IMG/VR virus record: IMGVR_UViG_2657245521_000005
Location: 1 to 11,507 of that record
Source of the DNA: a virus
Taxonomy: Duplodnaviria; Heunggongvirae; Uroviricota; Caudoviricetes
DNA: 11,507 bases
Direction: 5' to 3' (one strand)
Under the pieces are notes generated by a model. The model saw only the letters and a list, made by a program, of their open reading frames with translations, was not told where the DNA came from and searched no databases. Every line of letters begins with the position of its first letter. The first letter of the stretch is position 1. The translations under genes and the position numbers were made by a program. Positions 1-11,507 of the stretch are shown piece by piece.

Positions 1-584
1 TTTCCCAGTTTAACCAATAACTCATCTCGATTTGGAATCATAAGCGCTTTTCCAGTCAAGCAACGTTTTCTGGTTCCTTGTTCAAGGGATAAAAAAACAG
101 GGTTGTTATTAAGTCTCTCAGTTATTATATCTTTTTGTTCATGATAAAAATCCAATGCTTTCGTATTATCACTAGATGTAAATAACTCAATTCTCTTTAC
201 ACAATCATTCATGTGCATGACATTCAACTTTGCTGACCACTCCTCAGTTGAATCTGGATTCTCAGATAAATACATAAACAATAACTCAGCTTCCAGAATC
301 GCTCTTACATGAGGTGCAATCGCCGAAAAATCCCAAAAGTCATAATCCCGCTTAGCCCATCTTGATTTTGGTACGTTGGAAATCATTATTGAAGCATGAA
401 TGCAGATTCGTGAAAAAATGTATGTAGACCACCCTTTAAAAGCCTCAGCCATTCGCACACCAACCCCCTGACTTACAGCATTCGCTTCACATACAGCTTT
501 ATCAAACTCCCTTAAGTAGTGATGGAAGTCATCCATCGAAAAATCGTTTCGTTCAAGTGGATTTTCGGGATTATCTATTTTCAT
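1..584 (-). CDS. Hypothetical protein, N-terminal 194 codons only (C-terminus beyond window start); AT-rich cargo (moron) gene downstream of Q and its terminator
   Basis: Hand translation of the reverse strand from ATG at 584..582 (MKIDNPENPLERNDFSMDDFHHYLREFDKAVCEA...) stays open for 194 codons to the window edge despite AT-rich composition, where stops are frequent by chance. AGGTGA Shine-Dalgarno lies just upstream. Absent from the supplied ORF track, presumably because no in-window stop exists. No recognisable motif. Confidence 0.6.
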   Translation of the reverse strand, partial: MKIDNPENPLERNDFSMDDFHHYLREFDKAVCEANAVSQGVGVRMAEAFKGWSTYIFSRICIHASIMISNVPKSRWAKRDYDFWDFSAIAPHVRAILEAELLFMYLSENPDSTEEWSAKLNVMHMNDCVKRIELFTSSDNTKALDFYHEQKDIITERLNNNPVFLSLEQGTRKRCLTGKALMIPNRDELLVKLG

Positions 585-633
585 ACTTCACCTATTTAAA
601 ACAATTGGTTTAAATCGGTGAATTATAACGCAA

Positions 634-655
634 AAACCCGCTCATTGGCGGGTTT
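634..655 (-). terminator. Intrinsic terminator-like hairpin (tR'-like) between Q and the cargo gene
   Basis: Minus-strand reading gives AAACCCGC-CAATGA-GCGGGTTT followed by TTGCGTTAT: an 8-bp stem with GC core, 6-nt loop and U-rich tail. The tail is U-rich only on the minus strand, matching the direction of Q and the downstream gene. Confidence 0.45.
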
Positions 656-688
656 ATAAAACTTTGGCAACATATCAAATACGCTTCA

Positions 689-717
689 AATATGGCTTAT
701 TTTGTTGCATTTTGCAA
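689..717 (-). promoter_or_regulatory. Putative late promoter (pR'-like) immediately downstream of Q
   Basis: Minus-strand TTGCAA (717..712), 17-nt spacer, CATATT (694..689). Position between the Q stop (748) and the terminator hairpin matches lambdoid pR'/qut/tR' layout. Sequence match to sigma70 consensus is only moderate. Confidence 0.2.
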
Positions 718-747
718 GCGCGTTTGAAGGAGATAGTGAAATTTACT

Positions 748-1437
748 TCACATTTCTGCCACTTTGAGGGCTTCTTCTTCCTCATAGTATTCAAGAGCCA
801 TTGCCAACGCAGATTCATCAAGCTGGGTAAAAGCGGCCTTTAACCCAGCCCAGTGCCCTGAATAGACACGCAACCATGTCGAACGATCAACGCTAACCAT
901 GCGGGCCAACGCTGCACCAGCATAGTCTTTATAGGTTTCATTATTTCTGGTTGCGGCAATTTCCTGCCCTGCCAGCCATACCAGGCCAATCAGTTTCTTT
1001 ACTACGCGCTCCTGAAGGGAATTATCACCCAGGCATTTCTGATAAGTTTTCCAGACGTATTCACACATCATCACTTGGTGCTTATAGCTAAGGTCAAAAC
1101 CGTAGCAGTACCGCAACCAGGCCTGCTGGTATCCACTAAGCGCGGACACTGCCCTACGCCACGGCGCGGACTCAAATTCCGCATCTTTTATCGGCGGCAT
1201 TGGCCTGCAGCGGCTGCGTGTTTCCAGTACATACAATGGCGCGGAAAGCGAGTTAACAAAGCGAGGCCCCTTCTCTCCTTCGAGTTCGACGAGATGAATT
1301 CCACGGCGCGGGGTGGCATTTTTGTCTGCTGGTGGGTGTTCACTGAAAGCCTCAAGCTGCCCTTTTGTTCCCCCAGAGAGGTCAGGTAGCGCGCGGCGCA
1401 ATTCTATTCTTACAAAATTCAGGTCTTGTTGATTCAT
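748..1437 (-). CDS. Antitermination protein Q-like late-gene regulator
   Basis: ORF 748..1458 begins with GTG abutting the upstream stop; internal ATG at 1437 (MNQQDLNFVRIELRRALPDLSGGTKGQLEAF...) has GGAG upstream and is the preferred start. Assignment rests on recalled resemblance to the 21/82-type Q family and on synteny: last gene of the early operon after the nin-like genes, followed by promoter-like and terminator-like elements and a cargo gene. Confidence 0.55.
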   Translation of the reverse strand: MNQQDLNFVRIELRRALPDLSGGTKGQLEAFSEHPPADKNATPRRGIHLVELEGEKGPRFVNSLSAPLYVLETRSRCRPMPPIKDAEFESAPWRRAVSALSGYQQAWLRYCYGFDLSYKHQVMMCEYVWKTYQKCLGDNSLQERVVKKLIGLVWLAGQEIAATRNNETYKDYAGAALARMVSVDRSTWLRVYSGHWAGLKAAFTQLDESALAMALEYYEEEEALKVAEM

Positions 1438-1458
1438 GCTTCTTTGCGCTCCATACAC

Positions 1459-2487
1459 TTAAGCTTTCGCAATTACGCCGATCGCCAGCGCCCGATCCAT
1501 AAAACGCAGTAGCAGCTCAAGCTGCGTACCATGCTTCTGCTCGAATGCCGATACATCGGCGTGTAACTCGTCGTGGCACTCTCTGCACAGAGGGATCACG
1601 AAGAGGTCATGGGCTTTTGTTGCTGTACCACCCATACCGTGCCCTACGATATGGTGCGGATCATCTGCTGGCCGTCGGCAACACTCACAGGGTTGTGTTT
1701 TTACCCAGCGGGTGTAAGTCTCATTTATCCAGCGGCGTCGCTTTGGCCTGAGCATGAAAGATTCCGGAGACTCCGGATCAACAGAGAGCGTGAGGATCTT
1801 CTTCGCCTTCTCCTGCACGAGGCTGGTTGCAGTAGCGGAAGGCACAATGTCGCTTTCCCTCATGACCGAGCGGATCTTCTCATCCGGAAGGCGTAGCCCC
1901 TTGTGCGCAACGCTTTCCGGAATAACATCAGCCAGGTCGTTTCTGACCATCCACCAGCACAGTTCCGGAAGCGTCAGGATATGCGACTCGGGAAAACCAG
2001 AATCACGCCGAATGACTTCCAGAATCCAGGATACCAGGTTTCCTGCCGCTATACCTGCAAGCCGTTCGGTATGCTGCCCCGACAAAGTGTGATCGCAATG
2101 CCAGCACAGGCGAATACTTCCTGGTGGGTGCCGCATTGTTGTGAAGTTCTTGTCGTGCCACGATGAATGTGGCCACTGGCATTCAAACCGAGAACTCAGC
2201 CACTGCTCAAGGGAAGGAAGTCCACCGGCACGCTGAATAACCCGCTCATTCCCGAAGACCTGCCGCATTACCGGATCATCAGCCAGCGGCTGAATGGCTG
2301 CCGGAACAGCCCCGGTACTGAATGACGCCATTTCTTCTGGTTCAGGCTCGAGCAGAACGCGACCACGCATGAAGAGGTGCATCAGTTTAGCACCGGGACG
2401 GAACAGCACAATCCCCATACGATGGGCGATCTCGGGGGTAAGCAGAGCTCTCACGCGACCTGCCCCCTGGCAATGTGTTCTGCCCAC
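1459..2487 (-). CDS. DUF968/YdfU-like prophage protein with C-terminal HNH-like Cys/His cluster
   Basis: 342-codon ORF directly upstream of Q, as ydfU precedes quuQ in E. coli Qin prophage (recalled synteny). C-terminus carries CECCRRPADDPHHIVGH...CRECHDELH, a CxxC...HH...CxxCH pattern typical of HNH/zinc-finger nuclease folds. Start uncertain: GTG at 2487 (GGTGG SD) overlaps the upstream gene by 37 nt; in-frame ATGs also at 2418, 2382, 2370 and 2331. Confidence 0.5.
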   Translation of the reverse strand: MGRTHCQGAGRVRALLTPEIAHRMGIVLFRPGAKLMHLFMRGRVLLEPEPEEMASFSTGAVPAAIQPLADDPVMRQVFGNERVIQRAGGLPSLEQWLSSRFECQWPHSSWHDKNFTTMRHPPGSIRLCWHCDHTLSGQHTERLAGIAAGNLVSWILEVIRRDSGFPESHILTLPELCWWMVRNDLADVIPESVAHKGLRLPDEKIRSVMRESDIVPSATATSLVQEKAKKILTLSVDPESPESFMLRPKRRRWINETYTRWVKTQPCECCRRPADDPHHIVGHGMGGTATKAHDLFVIPLCRECHDELHADVSAFEQKHGTQLELLLRFMDRALAIGVIAKA

Positions 2488-3134
2488 AGTCCACCAATCC
2501 AGCGCACGCCTTTCGCAGTGAAACGTGCCTGGCTGAATGCATGATTTGAGGTTACGGATGTGCCGGTTTTCACTTCAAAACGGCCCGCATCAATATGCTG
2601 ATACCGTGGGGTCATCGTTCCACCAAGGCGATACATGATGTCGTTCTCAAGGAGGAATAACCGCAGATCTGGCTCTTTTGCCTTAAGCAGTTTTGCCACC
2701 TGGCGGAATGACATTGACCCACTGGCTGTACAGTACCGATCAACAAACGCTACCTTCGGCGCCGCGGCAGCCAGTTCGTTAGTCAACTGCTGTTTTTGTT
2801 CTGCAAGGTCAGCGGCAAGACGTAGGGCTTCAGAGAATGATTGAGGAATCGTCTGCTGCTGTGCCTGCTCAAGCTCCTGCCAGCGATCAACCAGACGCGC
2901 GGTAAACTCCGGCGACAGCTGCGCGACAACGATATAACTGTCCCGCTTCCCTATCAGATAAACCGATACCGACTGATTGAGGTGATTTTTAACTTCCCCC
3001 ATTGGGGGGAGTTCAATAACACCGCGCTCTGCCAGGCGTTCAATGGACCGTTTAACATGGTCATGTCGTGATTCCACCAGCTCAGCAATATCGCTGCTGG
3101 ACATGGTTAATGCTGTTGTTGCTAATTGGCTCAT
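2451..3134 (-). CDS. Phage regulatory protein Rha / antirepressor with KilAC-type C-terminal domain
   Basis: N-terminus MSQLATTALTMSSSDIAELVESRHDHVKRSIERL matches the Rha-type HTH signature (recalled). C-terminal YCTASGSMSFRQVAKLL...DIMYR...RYQHIDAGRFEVK resembles the ANT/KilA-C module. ATG at 3134 with GGAG 9 nt upstream is preferred over the ORF-track start at 3173. Confidence 0.7.
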   Translation of the reverse strand: MSQLATTALTMSSSDIAELVESRHDHVKRSIERLAERGVIELPPMGEVKNHLNQSVSVYLIGKRDSYIVVAQLSPEFTARLVDRWQELEQAQQQTIPQSFSEALRLAADLAEQKQQLTNELAAAAPKVAFVDRYCTASGSMSFRQVAKLLKAKEPDLRLFLLENDIMYRLGGTMTPRYQHIDAGRFEVKTGTSVTSNHAFSQARFTAKGVRWIGGLWAEHIARGQVA

Positions 3135-3147
3135 ACTTTTCTCCATA

Positions 3148-3534
3148 TCAGGCGGCCGCACCCGCCGGTTCATATCTGCTGATCGTTATCTCTACCCGAC
3201 CTTTCGGCACTACGGGTCCCCATTCCACCAGCATGCGCTTAATCTGGCTGTCATCTTCCCAGACACCCGCATGCGTCAGCGCGTCAAACAGGGCTTTGTT
3301 GTAATTATCGATATCCCGGCGGCGCGCATCCGGCGGGTACAGAGTGATTTCTACCGCAGCCAGTTCAGTCGATGGCTTCGGGAGACGTCGTAATTGCTCA
3401 ATGATCGCCACGCAGGCAGCGCTCTGGTATTTACGGCCTTCAGCGCTAATGAGGTGACGACCAGCCAGCGCCCCCTTGTTAGGAGCGCGCCAGTAAGTGT
3501 TCACGCTGGGTGGAAATGGGAGTATGAGCCTCAT
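3148..3534 (-). CDS. rusA: Crossover junction endodeoxyribonuclease RusA (Holliday junction resolvase)
   Basis: 128 aa, MRLILPFPPSVNTYWR...RRRDIDNYNKALFDALTHAGVWEDDSQI... aligns by eye with E. coli RusA including the conserved acidic residues. GGAGG SD 5-6 nt before ATG at 3534. Confidence 0.85.
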   Translation of the reverse strand: MRLILPFPPSVNTYWRAPNKGALAGRHLISAEGRKYQSAACVAIIEQLRRLPKPSTELAAVEITLYPPDARRRDIDNYNKALFDALTHAGVWEDDSQIKRMLVEWGPVVPKGRVEITISRYEPAGAAA

Positions 3535-3648
3535 TAAAAGCCTCCGTCATAATTCCTGAAACATACCTCAACTTTCCCGCTATAGTGACGAACACGTTGA
3601 ACAACATCCGAAATAGGCGCTATACCGGCAGGGCGATAAAAGACTGTT

Positions 3649-4971
3649 TCACGCATGAGTTACCCCCTGCATGCTGTCGACAAGACCACGCGCAATTGTG
3701 ATTATTTCGCTGGTGGACATTCGTTCCAGCCAGAGTTGATTGATGTTGGCTTTCAGCTTGTTCTGCTGTGATTCATCCAGCATGTCAGCACCATCCACCT
3801 GGTCGAATACAATTCCAACCTCCAGTGGCCATATACGGGACTCGGGAAGCTGATCGGCTACTGGTTTAGCTTTCTCACGGATGTGCATGCGGATCTGGCG
3901 AATATTGGACCAACTGGAAACATCCAGGCTTCCCATAGCTGCAATGAAATCAGTACTGTTCATGCCATATTCACCAGATGCTTCAAGGGCAACAGTACGA
4001 ATACGTTCCGACATATCCAGGCGCGCAGCAGCGTCATCGAATTCAATCGACAACAGCCACTCATCCACACCGAGCAAAATACTCTCACGAATAAGCAGCT
4101 TCGCTTTGTCGATCGTTAATGGTGATACCTGAGTGAATTCCGGTGCTTCGACAGAATCCGCCGCCCAGGTATGCCCAAACTTCGATTCACTGAATGTGTA
4201 TTCTTCTTTATCGCCGAACGCAGCTCTAACGCATGCCCACGCCTCAACACCGCTGATATCAAAAATATCTTTCTGGGTAAGTGGCAACTCTGCTTCTGGC
4301 TTGTCAGCTACAGGTGGTGTGGCGGTTGCTGGCTGAGGTTTGCTGGTGGCAAACTGTGCCAAAGCCATAAACGCGCGCCCTTTTGTTTCCAGTTCTGTGC
4401 GGTTGATATAGCTGAATCGCTCGCCACGCCATGACTTATCGAATACAGCTATGGCTCCGGAAAAAAACGCGCTGGTGGGCTTCTGTTTTTCGTCAGCAGG
4501 TACAAACCACACTGGCAGATCGAAACCAATGCGCCCGCGAATGAATACAATGTGATCGGCATCTTCCGGCCACCACGTTTCACTCGGCGCGGCTTTTATC
4601 AGGAATACATAGCGACCGCCCTTCTCGCGCTGGGTTGCTGCGTACTTCATGATGTGCGTCATACCAGTGATCGCCTGTTTCTCGTGGTACTGCGAGCGGC
4701 TATATGGAGGGTTGGCAAAAGCCGCGCCACCCAGTTCTGCCAGACGTTCAGACCAGTCCTGCGTCAGTGCGTTATCTTCGGCGGTGTACCATGCCGGGCA
4801 TTTCGCGTTGTCGTCGTCAGCAAACAAGTCCAGAACTAATGGACCAAATAGCGCGTTGATACCCCAGAAAAGCAGATCCGGTGTCCGCCACTGATCGCCA
4901 ACTTCTTTCAATTCGTGAGCTGGTTTTGAACGCAGTTCGGCCAGCGCGCGGCAGTATTTGTTTTCAATCAT
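3649..4971 (-). CDS. Phage-type DNA N6-adenine methyltransferase (Dam-like) fused to a ~230-aa C-terminal domain of unknown function
   Basis: N-terminal ~190 aa contain WRTPDLLF and the catalytic NPPY motif (FANPPYS) of phage Dam-type MTases. A Pro/Ala/Thr-rich linker (KPQPATATPPVADKPEAE) precedes an unassigned domain. The start ATG overlaps the upstream stop as ATGA (4968..4971), suggesting translational coupling. Confidence 0.75.
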   Translation of the reverse strand: MIENKYCRALAELRSKPAHELKEVGDQWRTPDLLFWGINALFGPLVLDLFADDDNAKCPAWYTAEDNALTQDWSERLAELGGAAFANPPYSRSQYHEKQAITGMTHIMKYAATQREKGGRYVFLIKAAPSETWWPEDADHIVFIRGRIGFDLPVWFVPADEKQKPTSAFFSGAIAVFDKSWRGERFSYINRTELETKGRAFMALAQFATSKPQPATATPPVADKPEAELPLTQKDIFDISGVEAWACVRAAFGDKEEYTFSESKFGHTWAADSVEAPEFTQVSPLTIDKAKLLIRESILLGVDEWLLSIEFDDAAARLDMSERIRTVALEASGEYGMNSTDFIAAMGSLDVSSWSNIRQIRMHIREKAKPVADQLPESRIWPLEVGIVFDQVDGADMLDESQQNKLKANINQLWLERMSTSEIITIARGLVDSMQGVTHA

Positions 4972-5900
4972 CCTCTGAATCCCTCTGGAATTTTGGTATC
5001 TACCGGGCCGAACTTCATCGGGTCATGTTTCTTCTCGCCCCAGCTTTCACGAGGGGGACGGCCTTTCTTATCCCAGCGGAGCCCGCTTTGCAGATAACCC
5101 TCAAATTTTTTCGGCCCAAACAGAGTTTCAGGCCGCATGTACTGATACTGCGCGTCATTGCCGTTCCAGTGTTCATGCTTGAGGTCAATCACCAGCGTTA
5201 AGTCGCTGACGGTATAACCTTCACGCAGACGGGCACGTATGTTTTCCAGAGAGGTTTTAGATTTCTGGTACCGGGAGCCGCTTACCTGGTTCAAATGAGT
5301 TAAAACCAGGATGGCGTTATCAGTGATCAACACCTCAGGGTCTGGTTGCGGCGCAACCGGACAAGAGGGGTTAATGATCTGTTTGTGGTGATCTGAGTAA
5401 TGATCTGTATAGAGAATAGGTTCCGCGACTTCGCGGTTAGGGTTCCGCGATTCTGCGTTTTCGGTTCCGTGATTCTGCGGAATAGGTTCCGCGACTTCGC
5501 GTTTCCCGTTCCGCGATTCTGCGGAATCCAGCGTTGCCGGGAATAAAACATTGATTAGCGCTTCGCCATTGATACGGTAATGCGTCTTTTTCGTGCCGTT
5601 TACCTGTCGCTGCGCCTTTTCAACAACCCCTGGTAGCCAGCGGGTACAAATCTTGTTTACCAGGCGCTGCACCTGATCTTCACTCACGCCGCGAATCTCT
5701 GCCGCAAGCTCGCTGTGCTCTTTATAAAACCAGCCATCATTCAGATCTGATTTACCAGACCAGAACACGAGCTGGTTTAGCACAGCGCCCAAAGCATGCG
5801 CCTGCTGATCGCCGGAGAAATAATCGAGGTACGGGACCGGAATGGTGATGCTATTCCTTTGCCCCGACAGCGATTGAACGATTTCAAATATCTGGCTCAT
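4968..5900 (-). CDS. Replication initiation protein (O-like) with origin iterons embedded in the coding sequence
   Basis: 310-aa ORF. The central linker (SAESRNGKREVAEPIPQNHGTENAESRNPNREVAEPI) is encoded by five tandem dyad-symmetric repeats, as the ori iterons sit inside lambda O. The C-terminal segment (HEHWNG...YMRPETLFGPKKFEGYLQ) resembles the conserved C-terminal domain of prophage replication proteins (recalled). Confidence 0.7.
   Translation of the reverse strand: MSQIFEIVQSLSGQRNSITIPVPYLDYFSGDQQAHALGAVLNQLVFWSGKSDLNDGWFYKEHSELAAEIRGVSEDQVQRLVNKICTRWLPGVVEKAQRQVNGTKKTHYRINGEALINVLFPATLDSAESRNGKREVAEPIPQNHGTENAESRNPNREVAEPILYTDHYSDHHKQIINPSCPVAPQPDPEVLITDNAILVLTHLNQVSGSRYQKSKTSLENIRARLREGYTVSDLTLVIDLKHEHWNGNDAQYQYMRPETLFGPKKFEGYLQSGLRWDKKGRPPRESWGEKKHDPMKFGPVDTKIPEGFRG
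5419..5523. repeat. Five 22-bp-period iterons (GGTTCCGCGAYTYYGCGG-like, each with internal dyad symmetry CCGCGA/TCGCGG); putative replication origin
   Basis: Direct reading: units start at 5419, 5441, 5463, 5485 and 5507. An adjacent stretch on the gene-downstream side (5382..5418) is about 68% AT with two GATC sites (5390, 5402). The ORF 5327..5551 (-) in another frame is just the translation of these repeats. Confidence 0.7.
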
Positions 5901-6069
5901 GATCGTCCGTTATCTCCCTGAACTTTCGCCTGAAATGCTCAAGTGGGCTGAAGCATTCGTGCGGGTAGCCATCACGCAGATAGATAACGCGCTGTGTTTC
6001 AGGTTCCCAGCGGATAACACGGACTGGCACTCCACGGTAGTCTTTGAACCTTCGGTTAAGTTCGCGCAC
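5884..6069 (-). CDS. Small basic hypothetical protein (61 aa) directly upstream of the replication gene
   Basis: GTG start at 6069 with GGAGG 11 nt upstream; 3' end overlaps the replication-gene start by 17 nt. No recognisable motif, so this could be a spurious ORF. Confidence 0.3.
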   Translation of the reverse strand: MRELNRRFKDYRGVPVRVIRWEPETQRVIYLRDGYPHECFSPLEHFRRKFREITDDHEPDI

Positions 6070-6241
6070 AGGCGTTTTGCCCTCCGGTTGTAGACCCCCA
6101 CAATTGAAACCGCCCTACTGTGGTTACACGGAACCCAGCGGTTTGATAATCTGCGTTCATACCGAAACAACGGAGTACCCGAAACAGGGATCATCCTGAG
6201 TTGCGGTAGACGGTTAAAAGCCGTTAAACTATTCATGCGGA

Positions 6242-6790
6242 TTATTTCTCCATACTCGAAGAGTTGTTCGCCAAGGCGCCCGGAGCTGCACACTCGCGGG
6301 CGTCACTCTTTTCTGGAAGGCAGTAAACACGGGCAATCAAATTCAGAAAGGTCATCAGAGTTACCCTGAACTGATATGCAATGTCGTTAAGGCTCTGCCA
6401 CTCACCCTTATCAACAACCCCATCGTCGATATACCAACGGTAAGCGTTGACCAGTTCTCCTAGACGCCCCACCAGCTCGGCCAGCTTTAAGCCAATTTCT
6501 TCGTTTTCGTCATCTGGCACCGCACCCGGAACGTGTATCCCGTTATCTGTTTGACGAGAAAACGCATCAGCTATGTAGCTGACACCGGCGGCTTTCTGTA
6601 ACACCATCGCCCATCCCATAGGGAAGATCTGATCCCCGTCGACGCGAAGGCGGTTAAACAATGCGTTCTCTGTCACCCCCAACCATTCCGCCGCTTCGGC
6701 GTAGCCACCAGGCAGATCGGTAATCGTTTTTTTAATCGCTACCACCAGCCAGGCTGGCTGACGTTCGACTTTCCATTGCGGTTCGTTCAT
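6242..6790 (-). CDS. CII-like phage regulatory protein (HTH-containing)
   Basis: Preferred start is ATG at 6790 (MNEPQWKVERQPAWLVVAIKK...) with GGAG 8 nt upstream; the longer ORF-track start at 6877 adds a low-complexity extension. The segment GGYAEAAEWLGVTENALFNRLR looks like an HTH. Located between cro-like and replication genes as cII is in lambdoid phages. Family assignment from memory only. Confidence 0.5.
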   Translation of the reverse strand: MNEPQWKVERQPAWLVVAIKKTITDLPGGYAEAAEWLGVTENALFNRLRVDGDQIFPMGWAMVLQKAAGVSYIADAFSRQTDNGIHVPGAVPDDENEEIGLKLAELVGRLGELVNAYRWYIDDGVVDKGEWQSLNDIAYQFRVTLMTFLNLIARVYCLPEKSDARECAAPGALANNSSSMEK

Positions 6791-6875
6791 TACTGCAACT
6801 CCATTATTGGCGCCGAACTTCCTGACGGTGATAGCCTGCAAGCTCTCACACCAACAGAACCGAAGGAGGTTCGAC

Positions 6876-7112
6876 ATGTCTGTAAATTCACTGCCTTACG
6901 GCAAGTCTCCCGAAGAAGCCGCTCACGATCTGGCCATGAATCTTGTCTTGTCTGGTCACTTCAAAACATTCCAGAAGTCGCCAGAAGAGGTTTTTCAGTT
7001 GATCACCAATGCAGAACTGGTCTTCAGTGAGCTTTACCGAAACAAACTGAAGGAAATAGAGTCCGCCAGATCAAAAGAAACCGAAGAGCAATATCAACGT
7101 ACGCAGTGCTAG
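6876..7112 (+). CDS. Small hypothetical protein (78 aa) encoded antisense to the early operon
   Basis: Perfect AGGAGG SD at 6864..6869 with 6-nt spacer to ATG 6876. Acidic/helical-looking product (MSVNSLPYGKSPEEAAHDLAMNLVLSGHFKTFQKSPEEVFQ...). Its stop overlaps the stop of the convergent minus-strand ORF at a shared CTAG (7109..7112). Confidence 0.5.
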   Translation: MSVNSLPYGKSPEEAAHDLAMNLVLSGHFKTFQKSPEEVFQLITNAELVFSELYRNKLKEIESARSKETEEQYQRTQC

Positions 7113-7354
7113 CCATGAACAAACGAAAGATAGAACGTTGAATAACCACGGGCGGCGCTTTCAACTGCCGCCTGTATTTCCTCCGCGGATCTCCCTCTAA
7201 GGATCATCTCGTTTATCAGCTCGCCAATAAGGGGAAGGACAATTGGCTGGAATGACATGTAAACCCGCATCTTTCCTTCGGAAATGGTTATTTGTCCTTC
7301 ATCGCTTTTAGCGGTCACGCTGTTTGTATCTTTTGTCTCGCTGCTGTTACCCAC
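7109..7354 (-). CDS. Small hypothetical protein (81 aa) downstream of the cro-like gene
   Basis: GTG start at 7354 preceded by AGGAG with a 6-nt spacer. Co-oriented with the cro-like gene and the early operon. No recognisable motif. Confidence 0.45.
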   Translation of the reverse strand: MGNSSETKDTNSVTAKSDEGQITISEGKMRVYMSFQPIVLPLIGELINEMILRGRSAEEIQAAVESAARGYSTFYLSFVHG

Positions 7355-7383
7355 GGTTAACTCCTCTCTTTTGTGGTTGTTGA

Positions 7384-7626
7384 TTAAGCTGCTGAATCTG
7401 CAGACTTTTGGAAAACATCAGGACGCAGTCTTTCTTTTGGGATGCCAGTAACGCTCTCAATGTACTGAGATTGCTTTATTGGCGACCTTTTTTCTCTGTT
7501 GAGCCAGTTCCATACCTGTTGTTGTTTAACTTCCTTCCCGGAACTTGCAGTTAGTTTCCGGGCTAACTCAGACTGGCCACCAGCAGTTTCAATTGCCTCT
7601 GAAAGGGCTAACTGCTCAGGTGTCAT
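7384..7626 (-). CDS. Cro-like HTH regulator (YdaS-type)
   Basis: Preferred start ATG 7626 (MTPEQLALSEAIETAGGQSELARKL...RLRPDVF) with GGAGA SD and 7-nt spacer. The pattern AIExAGGQSxLAR...ERLRPD resembles the YdaS/Cro-like HTH family (recalled). Divergent from the CI-like repressor across an operator-rich spacer. Confidence 0.7.
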   Translation of the reverse strand: MTPEQLALSEAIETAGGQSELARKLTASSGKEVKQQQVWNWLNREKRSPIKQSQYIESVTGIPKERLRPDVFQKSADSAA

Positions 7627-7763
7627 AGTTTTTCTCCTGTGGTTTGAGGTAAAAGTTGTTGGCACCATTGATCATACAACCTAAACAACTTTTACCACAA
7701 CTTTTAGGTGTTGGAAAGCTAAAACATAAAGTTGTAATCTCTCCTAATACAGGGGGTAAAGTT
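7627..7763. promoter_or_regulatory. Immunity switch (OR-like): operator half-site cluster with divergent pR-like and pRM-like promoters
   Basis: The 8-mer AAAGTTGT occurs at 7652, 7728 and 7758, and its reverse complement ACAACTTT at 7685 and 7697, all within 137 bp. Candidate pR (minus): -35 TTGTGG (7700..7695), 18-bp spacer, -10 TATGAT (7676..7671). Candidate pRM (plus): -35 TTGGAA (7711..7716), 18-bp spacer, -10 TAATCT (7735..7740). Confidence 0.55.
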
Positions 7764-8450
7764 GTGAATACACTTGCGGAACGACTAAAAATAGCTAGAG
7801 AGAAGAAAGGCATGAGCCAGGCTCAGTTAGCCGAGCTAATAGGCCTGTCTCAACAATCTGTGGCGAAAATTGAAAATGGAGATACGCTTCAACCTAGAAA
7901 GATCAAAGATATTGCGAAAGCTTTAGATGTATCCCAAAAATGGCTACAGCTCGGAATTGAGGAGAATGGCTCTATTTCTGATTTTGTAGTTGAGGAACTT
8001 GAAGAAGCAAAACTTGATCCTGAAGTATTTGCCAACATACCCGTTCTCGATGTTGAGTTCTCTGCTGGCAATGGATGTGAAGCCGAAATTGTGGAATCAG
8101 TTGTTGATTCGTTCCCTCTTCGTCGTTTCGATCTTAGAAAAGCTGGAGTCAGTCCTGCTAACGCAAGAATCGTAAAGATTTGGGGCAACAGCCTTTTGCC
8201 AGTATTGAATAATGGGGATCATGTCGCGATTGACATGTCACAGTCGAAACCTATCAGAGATGGTGATTTATACGCTGTTAGAGATGGAGTTTTACTTCGA
8301 GTTAAAGTTCTTATCAATCAACCAGATGGTGGTTTGATACTGCGGAGTTTCAACAAAGAAGAGTACCCGGATGAAGTACTCAACTTTGATGAAAGAAGAG
8401 CCAGAATACACGTTATTGGTCGCGTGTTCTGGTCTTCACGTTCATGGTAG
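7764..8450 (+). CDS. CI-like prophage repressor (HTH_XRE N-terminal domain plus LexA-like S24 autopeptidase domain)
   Basis: Preferred start GTG 7764 (GGGGG SD, 7-nt spacer); the ORF-track start at 7656 would lie inside the operator region. HTH: LAERLKIAREKKGMSQAQLAELIGLSQQSVAKIENGD. Candidate Ala-Gly cleavage site in FSAGNG. S24 motifs: WGNSLLP (Ser) and LLRVKVL (Lys). Confidence 0.85.
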   Translation: MNTLAERLKIAREKKGMSQAQLAELIGLSQQSVAKIENGDTLQPRKIKDIAKALDVSQKWLQLGIEENGSISDFVVEELEEAKLDPEVFANIPVLDVEFSAGNGCEAEIVESVVDSFPLRRFDLRKAGVSPANARIVKIWGNSLLPVLNNGDHVAIDMSQSKPIRDGDLYAVRDGVLLRVKVLINQPDGGLILRSFNKEEYPDEVLNFDERRARIHVIGRVFWSSRSW

Positions 8451-9323
8451 AGCGTGAAAAAGCATTTCTTCTGAAATGATTTTTAACTTAGCCCCTTCAT
8501 CATCTCTATATGAGACTGCTTTTTCTATTTTCCTTCCGTGACTGGAGAACTTCCAGTCACGCGAGGAAAGAGTACCAATTACGAGAAAATCAATTCTCTT
8601 TGTGATTCCGCTGGAAATCAGTCCATTATTCTTTTTAATTAGGTCTTCAACATGTGCTCTCTTTCCTGCCAAAAAAACACCCGTTAAGCAAAATGTTTTA
8701 TTTTCAACAGAAACTTCAGCAGTATTATCTAATGGTAATTTAGTAGAAAGCCCATCTACGACGCCGCTTGCAAGGTCACAACCAGTAAAATCTACCAGCG
8801 CCTTGTGTAGATTTTCACTTTCTTCAGTGGTGATGATCCCATCGCTCAGAATCTCTTTTACTAAAGCGTATAGTTCCTTTCCTGGATAATTACTTTTTAG
8901 CGCCCCGTTCTGTGTTAACCACCAGTCCAGGTATCTCACTTCTTCTTCACTTAAGGTTCGATCTGATATTAAACCCTTGCAAAGACCATTCAACAGATGC
9001 AGATCTGACTCACTGGAGAATAAATCCACATCGGGTATATCGAGTATTTGTCTTTGTATATCATTAAGATGCAGTTTTAATTCACCACGCTCATCATCAG
9101 AAACAACACCATCGGCCAGTATTTTAGAAACCCTAACACTTAGACTCTTGATAACACCATTTCTAATGGTTTGGTTGGCTTCAAGTAGCCAAGTATCAAG
9201 ATATAGCACCTCTTCATCCCGCACATGTCCATCGGCAAGAATCCCATCAATAATGCTGATTAAATTTGCAAAAAGCTTATTTCTATTTTGTGTGTAGTTA
9301 AAAACGTAGAGCTTGTCTTCCAT
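8442..9323 (-). CDS. Hypothetical protein with four TerB-like helical repeats and a C-terminal BRCT-like domain; candidate immunity-region accessory (defence or exclusion) gene
   Basis: Preferred start ATG 9323 (MEDKLYVF...) with AGGAGG SD. Four repeats of I-L-[AS]-D-[GR]-x-[VIL]-x-x-[ED]-E at aa 28, 68, 118 and 158 (ILADGHVRDEE, ILADGVVSDDE, LISDRTLSEEE, ILSDGIITTEE). C-terminal KTFCLTGVFLAGKRAHVEDLIKKNNGLISSGITKRIDFLVIG...KIISEEMLFHAL resembles the BRCT domain of NAD-dependent DNA ligase. Markedly AT-rich relative to flanks; 3' end overlaps the repressor stop by 9 bp. Confidence 0.75.
   Translation of the reverse strand: MEDKLYVFNYTQNRNKLFANLISIIDGILADGHVRDEEVLYLDTWLLEANQTIRNGVIKSLSVRVSKILADGVVSDDERGELKLHLNDIQRQILDIPDVDLFSSESDLHLLNGLCKGLISDRTLSEEEVRYLDWWLTQNGALKSNYPGKELYALVKEILSDGIITTEESENLHKALVDFTGCDLASGVVDGLSTKLPLDNTAEVSVENKTFCLTGVFLAGKRAHVEDLIKKNNGLISSGITKRIDFLVIGTLSSRDWKFSSHGRKIEKAVSYRDDEGAKLKIISEEMLFHALP
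8463..8486 (+). terminator. Weak terminator-like hairpin just after the repressor stop
   Basis: CATTTC-ttct-GAAATG followed by ATTTTTAA. The stem is short and AT-rich, and the element lies inside the 3' end of the convergent gene on the other strand. Confidence 0.2.
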
Positions 9324-9375
9324 ACAGCCTCCTTTTTTGAACATCCTTACATTCAGACGCCCCACAATCAAACCA

Positions 9376-9456
9376 CATAAAGTTGTTGACATAACCATTA
9401 TTCACAACTAAATTACACCTTAAAGTTGTTATTACGATTTACAACATTACAACTAG
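9376..9456. promoter_or_regulatory. Second operator cluster (OL-like) with near-consensus rightward promoter (pL-like)
   Basis: Plus-strand -35 TTGACA (9386..9391), 17-bp spacer, -10 TAAATT (9409..9414). AAAGTTGT at 9379 overlaps the -35 and recurs at 9422 near the predicted start site; ACAAC-type half-sites at 9404, 9441 and 9449. Same 8-mer as in the cI/cro spacer. The divergent promoter for the 8442..9323 gene must also lie here. Confidence 0.5.
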
Positions 9457-9559
9457 CCATAAGCAACAGCGAACAGGCAGGACGCCCACGAAGTAGCCGC
9501 CGGTGGCGTATGAATAACCGGATGATTCGCTCAATAAAGTTAGGTAGGGGAATTTCACG

Positions 9560-9772
9560 ATGAATGCAGCACAACGCCGAAGGGCTTATCACAAACACCC
9601 GAAAGTTGGGGACACTGTAATTTTACGAGGCATTCCTCGCCTAGTACTGGGTCCGTGTACGTTCAACAGCCTTACTGGCGAAGAGCGTAGCAAACCTTCG
9701 GTAAGCCGTGTCAGGGTTCAAATGACTGGCGGCTCAACAGCTGCACCACTCGTACGTAATTTAAAGTTTTAG
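9560..9772 (+). CDS. Candidate small N-like protein with N-terminal arginine-rich motif (speculative)
   Basis: First ORF after the pL-like promoter, 70 aa. N-terminus MNAAQRRRAYHKHPK resembles the arginine-rich RNA-binding motif of lambda N (DAQTRRRERRAEKQ, recalled). Upstream CGCTCAATAAA is a weak boxA-like match. SD is poor (GGGG about 10 nt upstream). Could be non-coding. Confidence 0.3.
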   Translation: MNAAQRRRAYHKHPKVGDTVILRGIPRLVLGPCTFNSLTGEERSKPSVSRVRVQMTGGSTAAPLVRNLKF

Positions 9773-10558
9773 CGATAAACAGGTGTCTTCGGGAGGGGTT
9801 ACGGGCTGGAGTGACTACCAGCATCGACAGCTCTATCCGACGAAACGGAACCGTCTAACCCGCGGTTGTCGGTGAAAAGTACCGTAGGGATGCCAGCTAG
9901 TCACTGGCCCCCGCCCGAAGATACCTACCACCGCGCCTGATGTGGTTAAAAGCAGGCCAAAGCAATAACAAGTACTTCCCTGTTCTGGCGGCCCGGTGTT
10001 TTCCCACTTGTCCGGTCACCGCCAGCCTTTTTCAGGGCACAACGACGAGAGCATTGACGAGCAAGGCATAAGTGCTGGTTCGATTCCAGACAGTCCCATT
10101 CTGTTGGGAGGGTTGGGCAGGGAAAAGGTTCGTTCGATTCGAACACCGGCAGTGCTCTCTTCGTTGTGGTGAATGCGCAGGCTGATGCGCTAAACCGTGA
10201 GGGAGTGTCCCGAAAGGGTGCGTCACTGGTAATCAACCCATGCCGGAATATCGTAGTACCGGCCACCACAACCAAATCACGCTTAGGACCGTGATAACCG
10301 TAGTTCCAGTATTGCTGTGTGTAGTCTTGGCGGTACCAGGGTCTTCAACCTTATGCAAGGGGGACGAAGATAATGTTCTACCTCGGTACCGCCCTTTTTA
10401 CGCAACAGAAAAGGGCATCACCGGGCGACGGGCTCATAACCCAATCCACCCTGGCAAAAGACAGCGGTCTCTGCAAGCCGCCGACCAATGCAGGTGTCCT
10501 TCTCTGTTGTGTATGGAGAAAACACGGCGGTGGAAGCCGCCTTAACGAGGGTAAAACC
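9773..10558 (+). other. GC-rich ORF-poor transcribed leader; candidate structured non-coding RNA or decayed gene remnant
   Basis: Hand translation of all three plus frames from 9781 to 10240 gives a stop every 20-65 codons; track ORFs on both strands are short, overlapping and of junk-like composition. Contains GC-clamped hairpins (CUUCGG 9787..9792; CCC-GAAA-GGG 10209..10218), a palindromic GTTCGATTCGAAC (10131..10143) and a G3N1G3N2G3N2G3 motif (10106..10122). Confidence 0.3.
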
Positions 10559-10930
10559 ATGAGTAATGACCGCATGACCGTAGTGCCAGATTTTCTTGGC
10601 GAACTGGATGCCGGCGTGTTCATGAACAAAATCGCGGCAGCACTTAATACCACCGCGCTTGGCGTTCTGAACAATGGCAACAAAGGCAAAGTAGTCCTCA
10701 CCTTTGATTTTGAGCGTATGGGTAATTCCGTTGAAGAGAAGCGCGTGAAGATCAAGCACAAGCTGAACTACAGCACCCCGACACCGCGTGGTAAAGCCTC
10801 CGAAGAGGACACAACCGAAACCCCTATGTGGGTTAACAAAGGCGGGAAGCTCACCATCCTGCAGGAAGACCAGGGCAACTTGTTTACCCTCGGCGGGGAT
10901 CCGGACGGAAAGTTACGCGCGGCGAAATAA
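10559..10930 (+). CDS. Hypothetical protein (123 aa)
   Basis: ATG 10559 with GAGGG SD and 7-nt spacer (MSNDRMTVVPDFLGELDAGVFMNKIAAALN...). The ORF-track start at 10373 adds a Cys/Trp/Gly-rich junk-like extension and is rejected. No family recognised. Confidence 0.55.
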   Translation: MSNDRMTVVPDFLGELDAGVFMNKIAAALNTTALGVLNNGNKGKVVLTFDFERMGNSVEEKRVKIKHKLNYSTPTPRGKASEEDTTETPMWVNKGGKLTILQEDQGNLFTLGGDPDGKLRAAK

Positions 10931-10987
10931 GCCGCGATTGATAGCCCTTAGTTTCAGTTTTTCTACATCTATCTTTAAGGAATTTTT

Positions 10988-11425
10988 ATGTCTCAGTTAG
11001 ACAGCGGTACCTTCAAGCAGGTCAAAGACCTGGTTCTTTCCGGTTATCACCTGAATGATATTCATGGCCTGGCTTGCCCGACCGCATTACTGCCAGAGGG
11101 TACTGGCGTTGAAAGCCTCGAGCGTTTTTCTCTGGAGCGTTTCCGCTTCCGCGGTGCCATGACCACGACCAGCATTGAAGATTTTGCTCGTTATTCAAAA
11201 GGCTATGCCAGCGCCACTGAAAAAGCACGCTGCTTTATTGACGCTGACCATATGACAGCCCGTTCAGTATTCAACATTGGCACACTCGATAACCCCGGTC
11301 ATGCGGACAATGTTGCATCCATCACCCTAAAACAGACCGCACCATTCCGTGCTCTTCTCCAGATCAACGGTGAACGTCTGAAACAAAAACAGATCGCCGA
11401 GTGGCTGGAAGACTGGAGCGATTAA
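10988..11425 (+). CDS. Hypothetical prophage protein (145 aa)
   Basis: ATG 10988 with AGGA SD and 7-nt spacer; coding-like composition (MSQLDSGTFKQVKDLVLSGYHLNDIHGLACPTALLPEGTG...). A vague recollection of DUF2303/YfdQ-like prophage proteins is not strong enough to name it. Confidence 0.6.
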   Translation: MSQLDSGTFKQVKDLVLSGYHLNDIHGLACPTALLPEGTGVESLERFSLERFRFRGAMTTTSIEDFARYSKGYASATEKARCFIDADHMTARSVFNIGTLDNPGHADNVASITLKQTAPFRALLQINGERLKQKQIAEWLEDWSD

Positions 11426-11507
11426 CCGGAAATCAGCATGACAGGATGCGGGACTTTGATCCGGACAGCCCCGAAATAAAATTCAGTGATCGCAGGGCAG
11501 CCCTTGA

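Follow-up and report, generated by a model that had tools for sequence, protein, structure and literature searches.

RprA is an envelope-stress small RNA (sRNA) whose regulon includes biofilm and RpoS-linked genes. The regulon also includes narP, and a processed form consisting of the last 47 nucleotides (nt) of the sRNA coexists with full-length RprA (PMC9262595). Processing is likewise known from the dicF locus of the Qin prophage, where RNase III makes the 5' end of a 190-nt DicF species and RNase E a 53-nt form (bioRxiv 10.1101/2023.04.14.536235), and where RNase III also makes a 72-nt form whose 3' end lies 19 nt past the terminator (PMC5069750). Most Qin transcripts stop at dicF (bioRxiv 10.1101/2023.04.14.536235), and the dicF terminator therefore also limits dicB expression. 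When phage genome databases were searched for DicF and DicB in a 2016 study, no homologues came to light (PMC5069750). Here we describe the leader region ahead of a yfdP-family gene in an 11,507-nt stretch of DNA from a virus of the Caudoviricetes (positions 1 to 11,507 of IMG/VR virus record IMGVR_UViG_2657245521_000005; this whole stretch is called the window). Judged by sequence comparison, the dicF locus is its closest counterpart in architecture and homology, and processed RprA its closest counterpart in seed.

The window covers the immunity and early region of a temperate enterobacterial phage. The region between its early-left promoter and the yfdP-family gene is a real, selected and structured non-coding leader, built as a chain of modules, and is neither a single large RNA nor gene debris. 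We read it as the 5' part of the early-left operon, predicted to be transcribed into a modular precursor RNA of the ydfC-dicF-dicB kind with an RprA-seed sRNA inside it, a reading to which we give a probability of roughly 0.65. An initial annotation, made from the letters of the window, had named a long structured leader or non-coding RNA among its options; this was essentially right, and the more precise description would be a dicF-locus-type precursor with a small RNA bearing the RprA seed. To place the region, the window was compared with 151 related loci, comprising an E. coli prophage together with named phages taken from annotated collections, 77 IMG/VR contigs retrieved with the pattern of the core element, 68 GTDB loci found via YfdP and 5 found via a 70-amino acid (aa) protein encoded in the leader. 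Across the 151 loci conservation falls in sharp steps that coincide with the module borders, and all modules lie on the plus strand:

9386-9414, plus strand: early-left (pL-like) promoter TTGACA-17-TAAATT, from a sigma-70 promoter scan (10 of 12 consensus positions).
9462-9534, plus strand: leader element A, a conserved RNA of about 70 nt (nhmmer match 9462-9532, E = 4.6e-25).
9560-9772, plus strand: a real protein gene of 70 aa, supported by homologues and by the ratio of nonsynonymous to synonymous change (pN/pS).
9782-9925, plus strand: module B', with about 20 distinct relatives in two interior families.
9927-10032, plus strand: unit C, of sRNA-like layout, conserved in about 40 loci.
10038-10168, plus strand: core module, from 77 IMG/VR loci, RNAalifold and covariance model R1.
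10163-10272, plus strand: variable module with the shape of a tRNA-type four-way junction (tRNA, transfer RNA), from a comparison of the slot among relatives.
10276-10295, plus strand: small conserved hairpin AUCACG-CUUAGGAC-CGUGAU, in 18 loci of the window type and in Uetakevirus SPC32H.
10311-10328, plus strand: RprA-type seed AUUGCUGUGUGUAGUCUU, identical at 18 of 18 nt to nt 59-76 of E. coli K-12 RprA.
10329-10399, plus strand: intrinsic terminator 2, read from the sequence.
10400-10512, plus strand: module E, its layout held in about 50 loci.
10513-10558, plus strand: (AU)GGAGAAAC motif, hairpin GGCGG-UGGAAG-CCGCC (10526-10541) and yfdP Shine-Dalgarno sequence GAGGG (10547-10551), conserved across Enterobacterales loci.
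10559-10930, plus strand: yfdP-family gene of 123 aa, the first conserved gene past the leader (phrog_204, E = 4e-42).

The arrangement that defines processed RprA, a single-stranded AUUGCUGUGUGUAGUCUU followed by a Rho-independent terminator, is found at 10311-10399, and the RNA predicted from it would measure about 89 nt in the window. Its terminator has a stem of GGCGGUACC (10329-10337) with GGUACCGCC (10385-10393), an elaborated top of 47 nt and a terminal CUUUUU (10394-10399). None of 200 shuffles gave any match of the seed to RprA, even with two mismatches allowed. The exact seed pattern occurs in at least 119 IMG/VR contigs, and the 5' domain of RprA with its rpoS-pairing region GGAAAUCCCCUGAGUGAAACAACGA is absent from the window and from all 117 of the 117 IMG/VR seed occurrences examined. 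Past the seed, 109 of 124 distinct sequences form a stable hairpin followed by at least four U; as many as 32 different stem starts follow the identical seed, and the IMG/VR units have a median seed-to-U-run length of 48 nt. An invariant seed is thus carried on freely exchanged terminators, as would be expected if the sRNA were trans-acting and of the Hfq type.

In relatives the seed unit resembles RprA even in the stem (UUUGCCCAUC...GGUGGGC) and in its length of about 48 nt, and the best relative for the Rfam RprA model (RF00034), locus L092, reaches 41.2 bits against a gathering threshold of 70 bits, aligned over AUUGCUGUGUGUAGUCUUUGCCC...GGGC and the U-run. The unit differs from RprA in that it is without the 5' two-thirds of the sRNA (the rpoS-pairing region and the hdeD seed around nt 30-60) and does not lie at the chromosomal ydiK-ydiL locus; it stands behind a predicted phage early promoter, whereas RprA stands behind an Rcs-dependent one. 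Complementarity of the seed to the phage's own messenger RNAs (mRNAs) in the window does not exceed the level of chance. A full-text literature search, of incomplete coverage, returned no description of a phage or prophage RprA-like sRNA. Pas sRNAs, HnrS and RyeG were set aside as candidates, being sited in late or other prophage regions, as was lambda LPR1/PreS, whose published abstract gives no link to the locus.

The connection to dicF runs through relatives that share the slot. In locus L012 the variable module lies between a core element and an RprA-type seed, and over 122 nt it shares 82% identity (E = 3e-30) with the 116 nt just upstream of K-12 dicF. DicF-like seeds occupy the slot in other yfdP-type leaders, and the Rfam DicF model (RF00039) scores 28 bits in locus L112. 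Qin itself has a helix of about 20 base pairs (bp; GUGAAUUUUGUGAUGUGGUG with CACUGCAUCACAAAAUUCAU) directly past the DicF terminator, which closes a module of the type found in locus L008 and ends at the dicB ribosome-binding site, so that the sequence between terminator and dicB is laid out as module E is before yfdP. In four IMG/VR loci (L207, L222, L249 and L271) the RprA seed replaces the DicF seed on a DicF-like terminator with Qin-type flanks, a seed-swapped DicF, and this terminator is followed by the Qin sequence AAAGUGAAUUUUGUGAUG.GGUGAAUGCGGCU. Because of these seed-swapped DicF bodies, the DicF-like seeds in yfdP leaders and the Qin-like flanking module, we take the slot to be homologous and its seed to be exchangeable.

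With Qin dicF the window shares a long non-coding stretch of a repressor-controlled early-left operon and an sRNA terminator that starts (U)UUGGCGG, flanked by helix-closed modules beginning GUUGUGG/GUGGUGAAUGCGG. It is set apart by its RprA-type seed, by its downstream genes, which are yfdP and yfdQ and not dicB, and by a much longer terminator hairpin; Qin in turn is without modules A, B' and C, the double T-arm core (model R1 finds no core in Qin) and a module E with an fMet arm. The marks of a DicF-type locus, namely a non-coding stretch, an end at a terminator and flanks homologous to those of dicF, are all present, the last by way of relatives. By length arithmetic, the RNase III ends known from Qin appear to coincide with the closing helix of the upstream module and with the post-terminator helix.

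The same features might serve a leader that acts purely in cis, in which terminators, helices and element A gate or time yfdP and the genes downstream, by termination, antitermination, RNase III-dependent mRNA maturation or translational control, with no trans-acting RNA. Two intrinsic terminators do stand ahead of the first conserved gene, element A lies close behind the promoter as HK022 putL does, and in Qin the terminator at dicF also limits dicB expression. In about 50 loci, moreover, module E runs right up to the yfdP ribosome-binding region. Its closing helix of 20 bp (10400-10419 with 10493-10512) begins directly past the U-run of terminator 2 and ends immediately ahead of the (AU)GGAGAAAC motif; compensatory changes are seen at 13 of its 20 pairs, and 94% of cells are paired, against 28-59% in slid controls, with none of 500 shuffles reaching the observed values. 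What speaks against a leader without a trans-acting product is the seed, since 18 invariant nt on a terminator replaced by at least 32 stems form the pattern of a trans-acting seed and not of a terminator accessory. The seed-plus-terminator unit is also present in many further phage contexts that have neither module E nor yfdP, and the Uetakevirus copy sits between head genes. A purely cis-acting leader therefore appears unlikely to be the whole account, and it does not exclude the precursor reading, with which it is compatible.

Element A was found by nhmmer in 87 loci, with one copy in each. Its hairpin CCGG...CCGG (~9501-9522) covaries, both partners of its pairs having changed in 16, 4 and 14 of 43 sequences, and the remainder is nearly invariant. 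It starts about 10-15 nt past the -10 box in relatives and about 48 nt past it in the window, and the promoters ahead of it carry unrelated operator sequences across relatives. In its size of about 70 nt, its position near pL, its conservation whatever the immunity type and the terminators downstream, it recalls HK022 put and lambda nut. It departs from them in having only one covariation-supported hairpin, where put has two stem-loops, and no second copy found in the right operon, and no N-like partner is consistently encoded beside it. As a homologue of HK022 put, element A is ruled out on sequence.

The core module has a closing stem of 19 bp (10038-10056 with 10150-10168), within which lie two hairpins that mimic the T-arm of a tRNA, the first at 10075-10089 (CUGG-UUCGAUU-CCAG) and the second at 10128-10144 (GUUCG-UUCGAUU-CGAAC), together with a further covarying hairpin at 10094-10109 and a G-rich linker. 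Both mimics have a 5-bp stem closed by G-C and a 7-nt loop UUCRANN, and the stems of both covary; in loci L090 and L130, for instance, the first has changed from CUGG/CCAG to CAGG/CCUG, and distant core copies in Izhakiella, Erwinia, Buttiauxella and Yersinia favour this T-arm over the alternative pairing given by RNAalifold. The RNAalifold structure has 41 pairs, 7 of them compensatory, and the core fold has a z-score of -3.9. In combining a long closing stem with an internal mismatch and canonical T-arm hairpins the core resembles YrlA and other tRNA-like RNAs, from which it differs in having two T-arms and no D-arm or acceptor mimic. To our knowledge, most hosts (E. coli, Klebsiella, Yersinia) are without Rsr/Ro. 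The M3 RNA of phi80 was tried as a precedent, as an RNase P-processed lambdoid RNA, and rejected: it is an oop homologue placed elsewhere in the genome, and phi80 is without the core.

A further likeness to tRNA lies in module E, whose interior holds CGGGCUCAUAACCC (10429-10442) inside a covarying CCGGR/YCCGG helix. We take this sequence to be the anticodon arm of initiator tRNA-fMet, with three G-C pairs and a CUCAUAA loop; it is kept in most module E copies of the fMet type, and Serratia and Yersinia leaders have an unrelated interior with a conserved AGUMUAA motif. The variable module, which is closed by GUUGUGGUG (10163-10171) with CACCACAAC (10264-10272) and shares GUUGUG with the core stem, occupies a slot in which at least six unrelated sequence types are found with a common closing helix, and which is filled in a few phages by a real tRNA-Arg or tRNA-Ile (real tRNAs occur in 5 of 147 leaders). 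ARAGORN detected no tRNA or transfer-messenger RNA gene in the window.

In the SPN1S-like Uetakeviruses (locus L002, Salmonella phage SPC32H, 2300-2900) the double T-arm core lies between head genes, along with an upstream domain about 200 nt long, a tRNA-Arg(UCU), the small hairpin, a variant of the RprA-like seed with its terminator, and a second terminator. The upstream domain also stands ahead of the core in Stx2a phages (locus L003). Since the core occurs there between head genes, at least some modules probably act independently of yfdP. A promoter noticed by eye ahead of the Uetakevirus copy was unsupported by the promoter scan.

It has to be considered whether the T-arm core and the anticodon-arm mimic are the point of the leader, as decoys that titrate or misdirect tRNA-targeting defences or tRNA-binding enzymes early in infection. 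Both core hairpins fit the T-loop consensus G-UUCRANN-C with covarying stems, CGGGCUCAUAACCC is kept in most fMet-type copies of module E, real tRNAs can fill the neighbouring slot, and the core accompanies tRNA-Arg in the Uetakevirus. Yet an aminoacyl-acceptor end and CCA are missing, and neither ARAGORN nor the Rfam tRNA model recognizes a tRNA. Many leaders also do without the core, strong matches to which occur in only 8 of 67 yfdP loci, and the module E interiors of other lineages are unrelated. Together these points make decoys improbable as the explanation of the region.

The initial annotation had favoured one large structured RNA and proposed that it be examined for covariation in homologous regions and by an Rfam scan. 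The covariation is there, with compensatory changes counted in the element A hairpin, the core and module E; for module B', terminator 1 of unit C and the terminator 2 slot, pairing support was read by eye. The closing helix of module B', 17 bp with one internal mismatch (9782-9798 with 9909-9925), is recovered by the minimum free energy fold and encloses two hairpins with mutually complementary loops (9811-9817, GUGACUA; 9898-9904, UAGUCAC). Its variants GGGUUUUCGGG/CCCGAAAACCC and GAAGUUUCGGG/CCCGAAACUCC were read by eye and not formally counted, as were compensatory loop-loop variants such as GACCA/UGGUC. Unit C consists of a 5' hairpin (~9929-9945), a conserved single-stranded stretch and intrinsic terminator 1, which has its stem at 9985-10025 and its U-run at 10028-10032 and was read from the sequence, the loop limit of 8 in the scan tool excluding this hairpin. 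In loci L093, L094 and L100 the terminator stem is swapped for CUGGCUGCUCAC...GUGACAGCCAG, with the single-stranded part retained; unit C could, speculatively, be a second sRNA.

The region folds better than its shuffles (z = -3.3, 0 of 20 shuffles), and so does the opposite strand (z = -3.4), for which reason folding energy alone cannot choose the strand. The covariance model R1 of the core, however, scores 172 bits on the plus strand and 26 bits on the minus strand, and G-U pairs are frequent in the plus-strand helices: U-G is the commonest pair at pair 19/26, and G-U is present in 10 of 28 sequences at pair 3/42. From the common G-U pairs and the weaker minus-strand score we conclude that the plus strand is the structured one, in agreement with the direction of the promoter.

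Dense covarying structure on one strand, the folding score and the tRNAs occasionally embedded in these leaders would also suit a single unit of about 0.8-1.1 kb like GOLLD, ROOL or OLE; embedded tRNAs have been reported for GOLLD, and with GOLLD and ROOL the region shares its length, its phage setting and its high degree of structure, as well as the tRNAs that are sometimes found inside or next to it. We consider such a unit very improbable. Among close relatives each module may be there, missing or exchanged without regard to the others, and the region is broken up by two internal terminators and a protein gene. Apart from the shared CACAAC/GUUGUG ends, the modules have no conserved long-range pairing with one another, and there is no single conserved architecture. 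One E. coli relative (L001), for example, is without exactly 10044-10406, and has CACAAC/CGCAAC at both junctions. The Rfam 15 covariance models, run over the whole window at gathering thresholds, gave no match to any family (GOLLD, ROOL, OLE, HEARO, group I and II introns and RNase P included). At E <= 10 in 9300-10700 they gave only a weak DicF match and no RprA, Y-RNA or tRNA-clan match. A scan of eleven loci as well yielded weak DicF and RprA matches and otherwise only unrelated ones; in the Stx2a phage L003 (Stx2a_1447, 44-245), Rfam C4 antisense RNA (84 bits) and IsrK (67 bits) lie upstream of an antirepressor gene, a P1-type immI module unrelated to the window leader. As the region is a mosaic of independently exchangeable modules, the single large RNA is unsupported.

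A paucity of open reading frames (ORFs) over about 1.1 kb had been part of the same proposal, and it holds for 9773-10558 and for the leader at 9422-9559, neither of which contains a conserved ORF. It fails for 9560-9772: the 70-aa protein has 14 database homologues at 77-94% identity, 10 of 13 aligned ones being likewise 70 aa long, and pN/pS is 0.18-0.20 at pS 0.54-0.69 against two diverged loci. Because this gene is real, the ORF-free part amounts to 786 nt plus a 5' leader of 138 nt, and not to 1.1 kb. Since other loci join element A directly to module B', the gene is an inserted cassette between the two. Its protein has no Pfam or PHROG match, and its AlphaFold model is unusable, with a predicted local distance difference test score (pLDDT) of 51. 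A lambda N-like antiterminator was considered for it and rejected, being hinted at only by an Arg-rich N-terminus and matching no family.

Within 9773-10558 the longest ORFs are of 58 and 101 aa on the plus strand and 109 aa on the minus strand. The four longest candidates (58, 64, 101 and 109 aa) have stops or frameshifts in relatives at 85-97% identity, all candidate ORFs tested within 9946-10545 are broken in close relatives, and those of at least 30 aa scanned within 9783-10545 gave no credible Pfam or PHROG match. A 10-codon upstream ORF (AUGGAGAAA..., 10513-10545) was discarded, its start and frame not being kept across the family. The PHROG family phrog_36251 matches the antisense translation of the core (10036-10158, minus strand); this is most simply an annotation artefact, the family probably having been built from spurious ORF calls over the RNA.

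Two further properties had been emphasized. The region is GC-rich (52-56%) beside the immunity island upstream (36-43%) but not beside the rest of the window (48-59%). A canonical G-quadruplex motif, GGGAGGGTTGGGCAGGG, is indeed present at 10106-10122, but relatives read ...GGGCAGAGAAAAGG and it is not conserved, so it was dismissed as a functional element. The frameshifted gene remnants offered as another option are rejected because there are no credible Pfam or PHROG family matches, no ORF is kept in relatives and covariation of the RNA type is strong. Decayed coding sequence or a degenerate tRNA array with no selected function, to which the short overlapping ORFs on both strands, the tRNA-like fragments and the phrog_36251 match might point, is next to untenable, since frames are broken differently among relatives, the match is limited to 41 of 138 profile positions and coincides exactly with a conserved RNA element, and many helices have compensatory changes, which show that RNA pairing is under selection.

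Several observations weigh against a dicF-type precursor with an RprA-seed sRNA. The window has no direct BLAST match to Qin and is linked to it only through slot-sharing relatives; the Rfam DicF model reaches 16.6 bits there (E = 1.5, 10316-10394), with a gathering threshold of 48, and the RprA model gives nothing in 9300-10700 at E <= 10. The hairpin of terminator 2 is, at 65 nt, unusually long for an Hfq sRNA. Processed RprA alone sufficed for the second narP repression, which concerns the narP 5' end and was possibly indirect (PMC9262595). Although the window takes in about 7 kb of the right operon, no second copy of element A was found there, and its sequence is dissimilar to HK022 putL and the HK022 pL leader. 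The RNase III sites proposed below are suggested by position and helix length and not by a cleavage rule. Finally, the conserved interiors (the double T-arm, the kissing loops and the fMet anticodon arm) exceed the needs of processing sites.

As a dicF-type precursor, the leader would work as follows. On derepression of the promoter, transcripts would be cut by RNase III in the long closing helices (10163-10171/10264-10272 and 10400-10419/10493-10512), and RNase E would cut the A/U-rich stretch just 5' of the seed. The 3' end would arise by termination at 10394-10399, or by RNase III cleavage in read-through transcripts. The product would be an Hfq-type sRNA of about 90 nt, or about 48 nt in most relatives; as it would present the RprA 3' seed, it would act on the targets of processed RprA upon pL derepression. 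More speculatively, element A may help polymerase to read through both terminators to yfdP in a put-like manner, and the T-arm and initiator-anticodon mimics may be recognition or decoy elements for tRNA-binding factors. These mimics and the kissing-loop module could have functions beyond scaffolding.

The genes around the leader agree with an immunity and early region. Upstream, Pfam and PHROG context identifies:

6242-6877, minus strand: cII-like gene.
7384-7668, minus strand: cro-like gene.
7656-8450, plus strand: cI-like, LexA-family repressor gene.

The early-left promoter, which bears out the near-consensus pL-like promoter of the initial annotation, points rightward, downstream of the cI-like gene and divergent from a gene for a 318-aa protein (8442-9398, minus strand). 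Inverted motifs AAAGTTGTT...ACAACT, repeated in 9379-9455, overlap and follow it and are probably repressor operators. The likeness of this GTTGT/ACAAC motif to the CACAAC/GUUGUG module ends is a coincidence, because relatives with other operators keep the module ends. The 318-aa protein, encoded between the cI-like repressor gene and the promoter, has a C-terminal BRCT domain (phrog_3989); its gene lies inside an island of 36-41% GC and has a homologue at the equivalent place in locus L156. This position is that of lambda rexAB, and the gene may therefore be an exclusion or defence moron.

Downstream, PF27127 YfdP is matched in relatives, and among widely conserved genes yfdQ/DUF2303 comes next. 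In the window the yfdQ-like DUF2303 ORF (10988-11425) has 145 aa, against about 275 aa in relatives, with a stop at 11425; it appears truncated or interrupted because it is short and the sequence past 11425 diverges. In K-12 the CPS-53 prophage (L158, 4248-4604) has yfdP with tandem TTTTGACGG-type repeats upstream in place of the leader, and it was dropped as a comparison leader, the leader upstream of yfdP being deleted there.

DicF has so far been treated as an oddity of defective E. coli prophages. The comparison now makes the dicF locus one member of a large family of modular early-operon leaders, which is spread over Enterobacterales prophage and phage contigs and whose sRNA slot can carry different seeds, among them an exact seed copy of the core-genome sRNA RprA. 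Such leaders are currently unannotated or overlaid by spurious "hypothetical proteins". The double T-arm RNA and the initiator-anticodon mimic have no Rfam 15 family and are candidates for new phage RNA functions. A wider picture, which we advance tentatively and regard as doubtful in its entirety, is that the active RprA 3' end, copied as a unit of about 48-90 nt, reprogrammes RprA-controlled genes on derepression, that the tRNA mimics act on tRNA-binding enzymes, the ribosome or anticodon-nuclease defences, and that DicF is one seed variant of a larger phage sRNA family with swappable seeds. Should the RNA be both produced and functional, induction of the prophage would feed straight into the RprA regulon, and seed swapping on a constant terminator body would then offer phages a simple route to host-targeting regulators.

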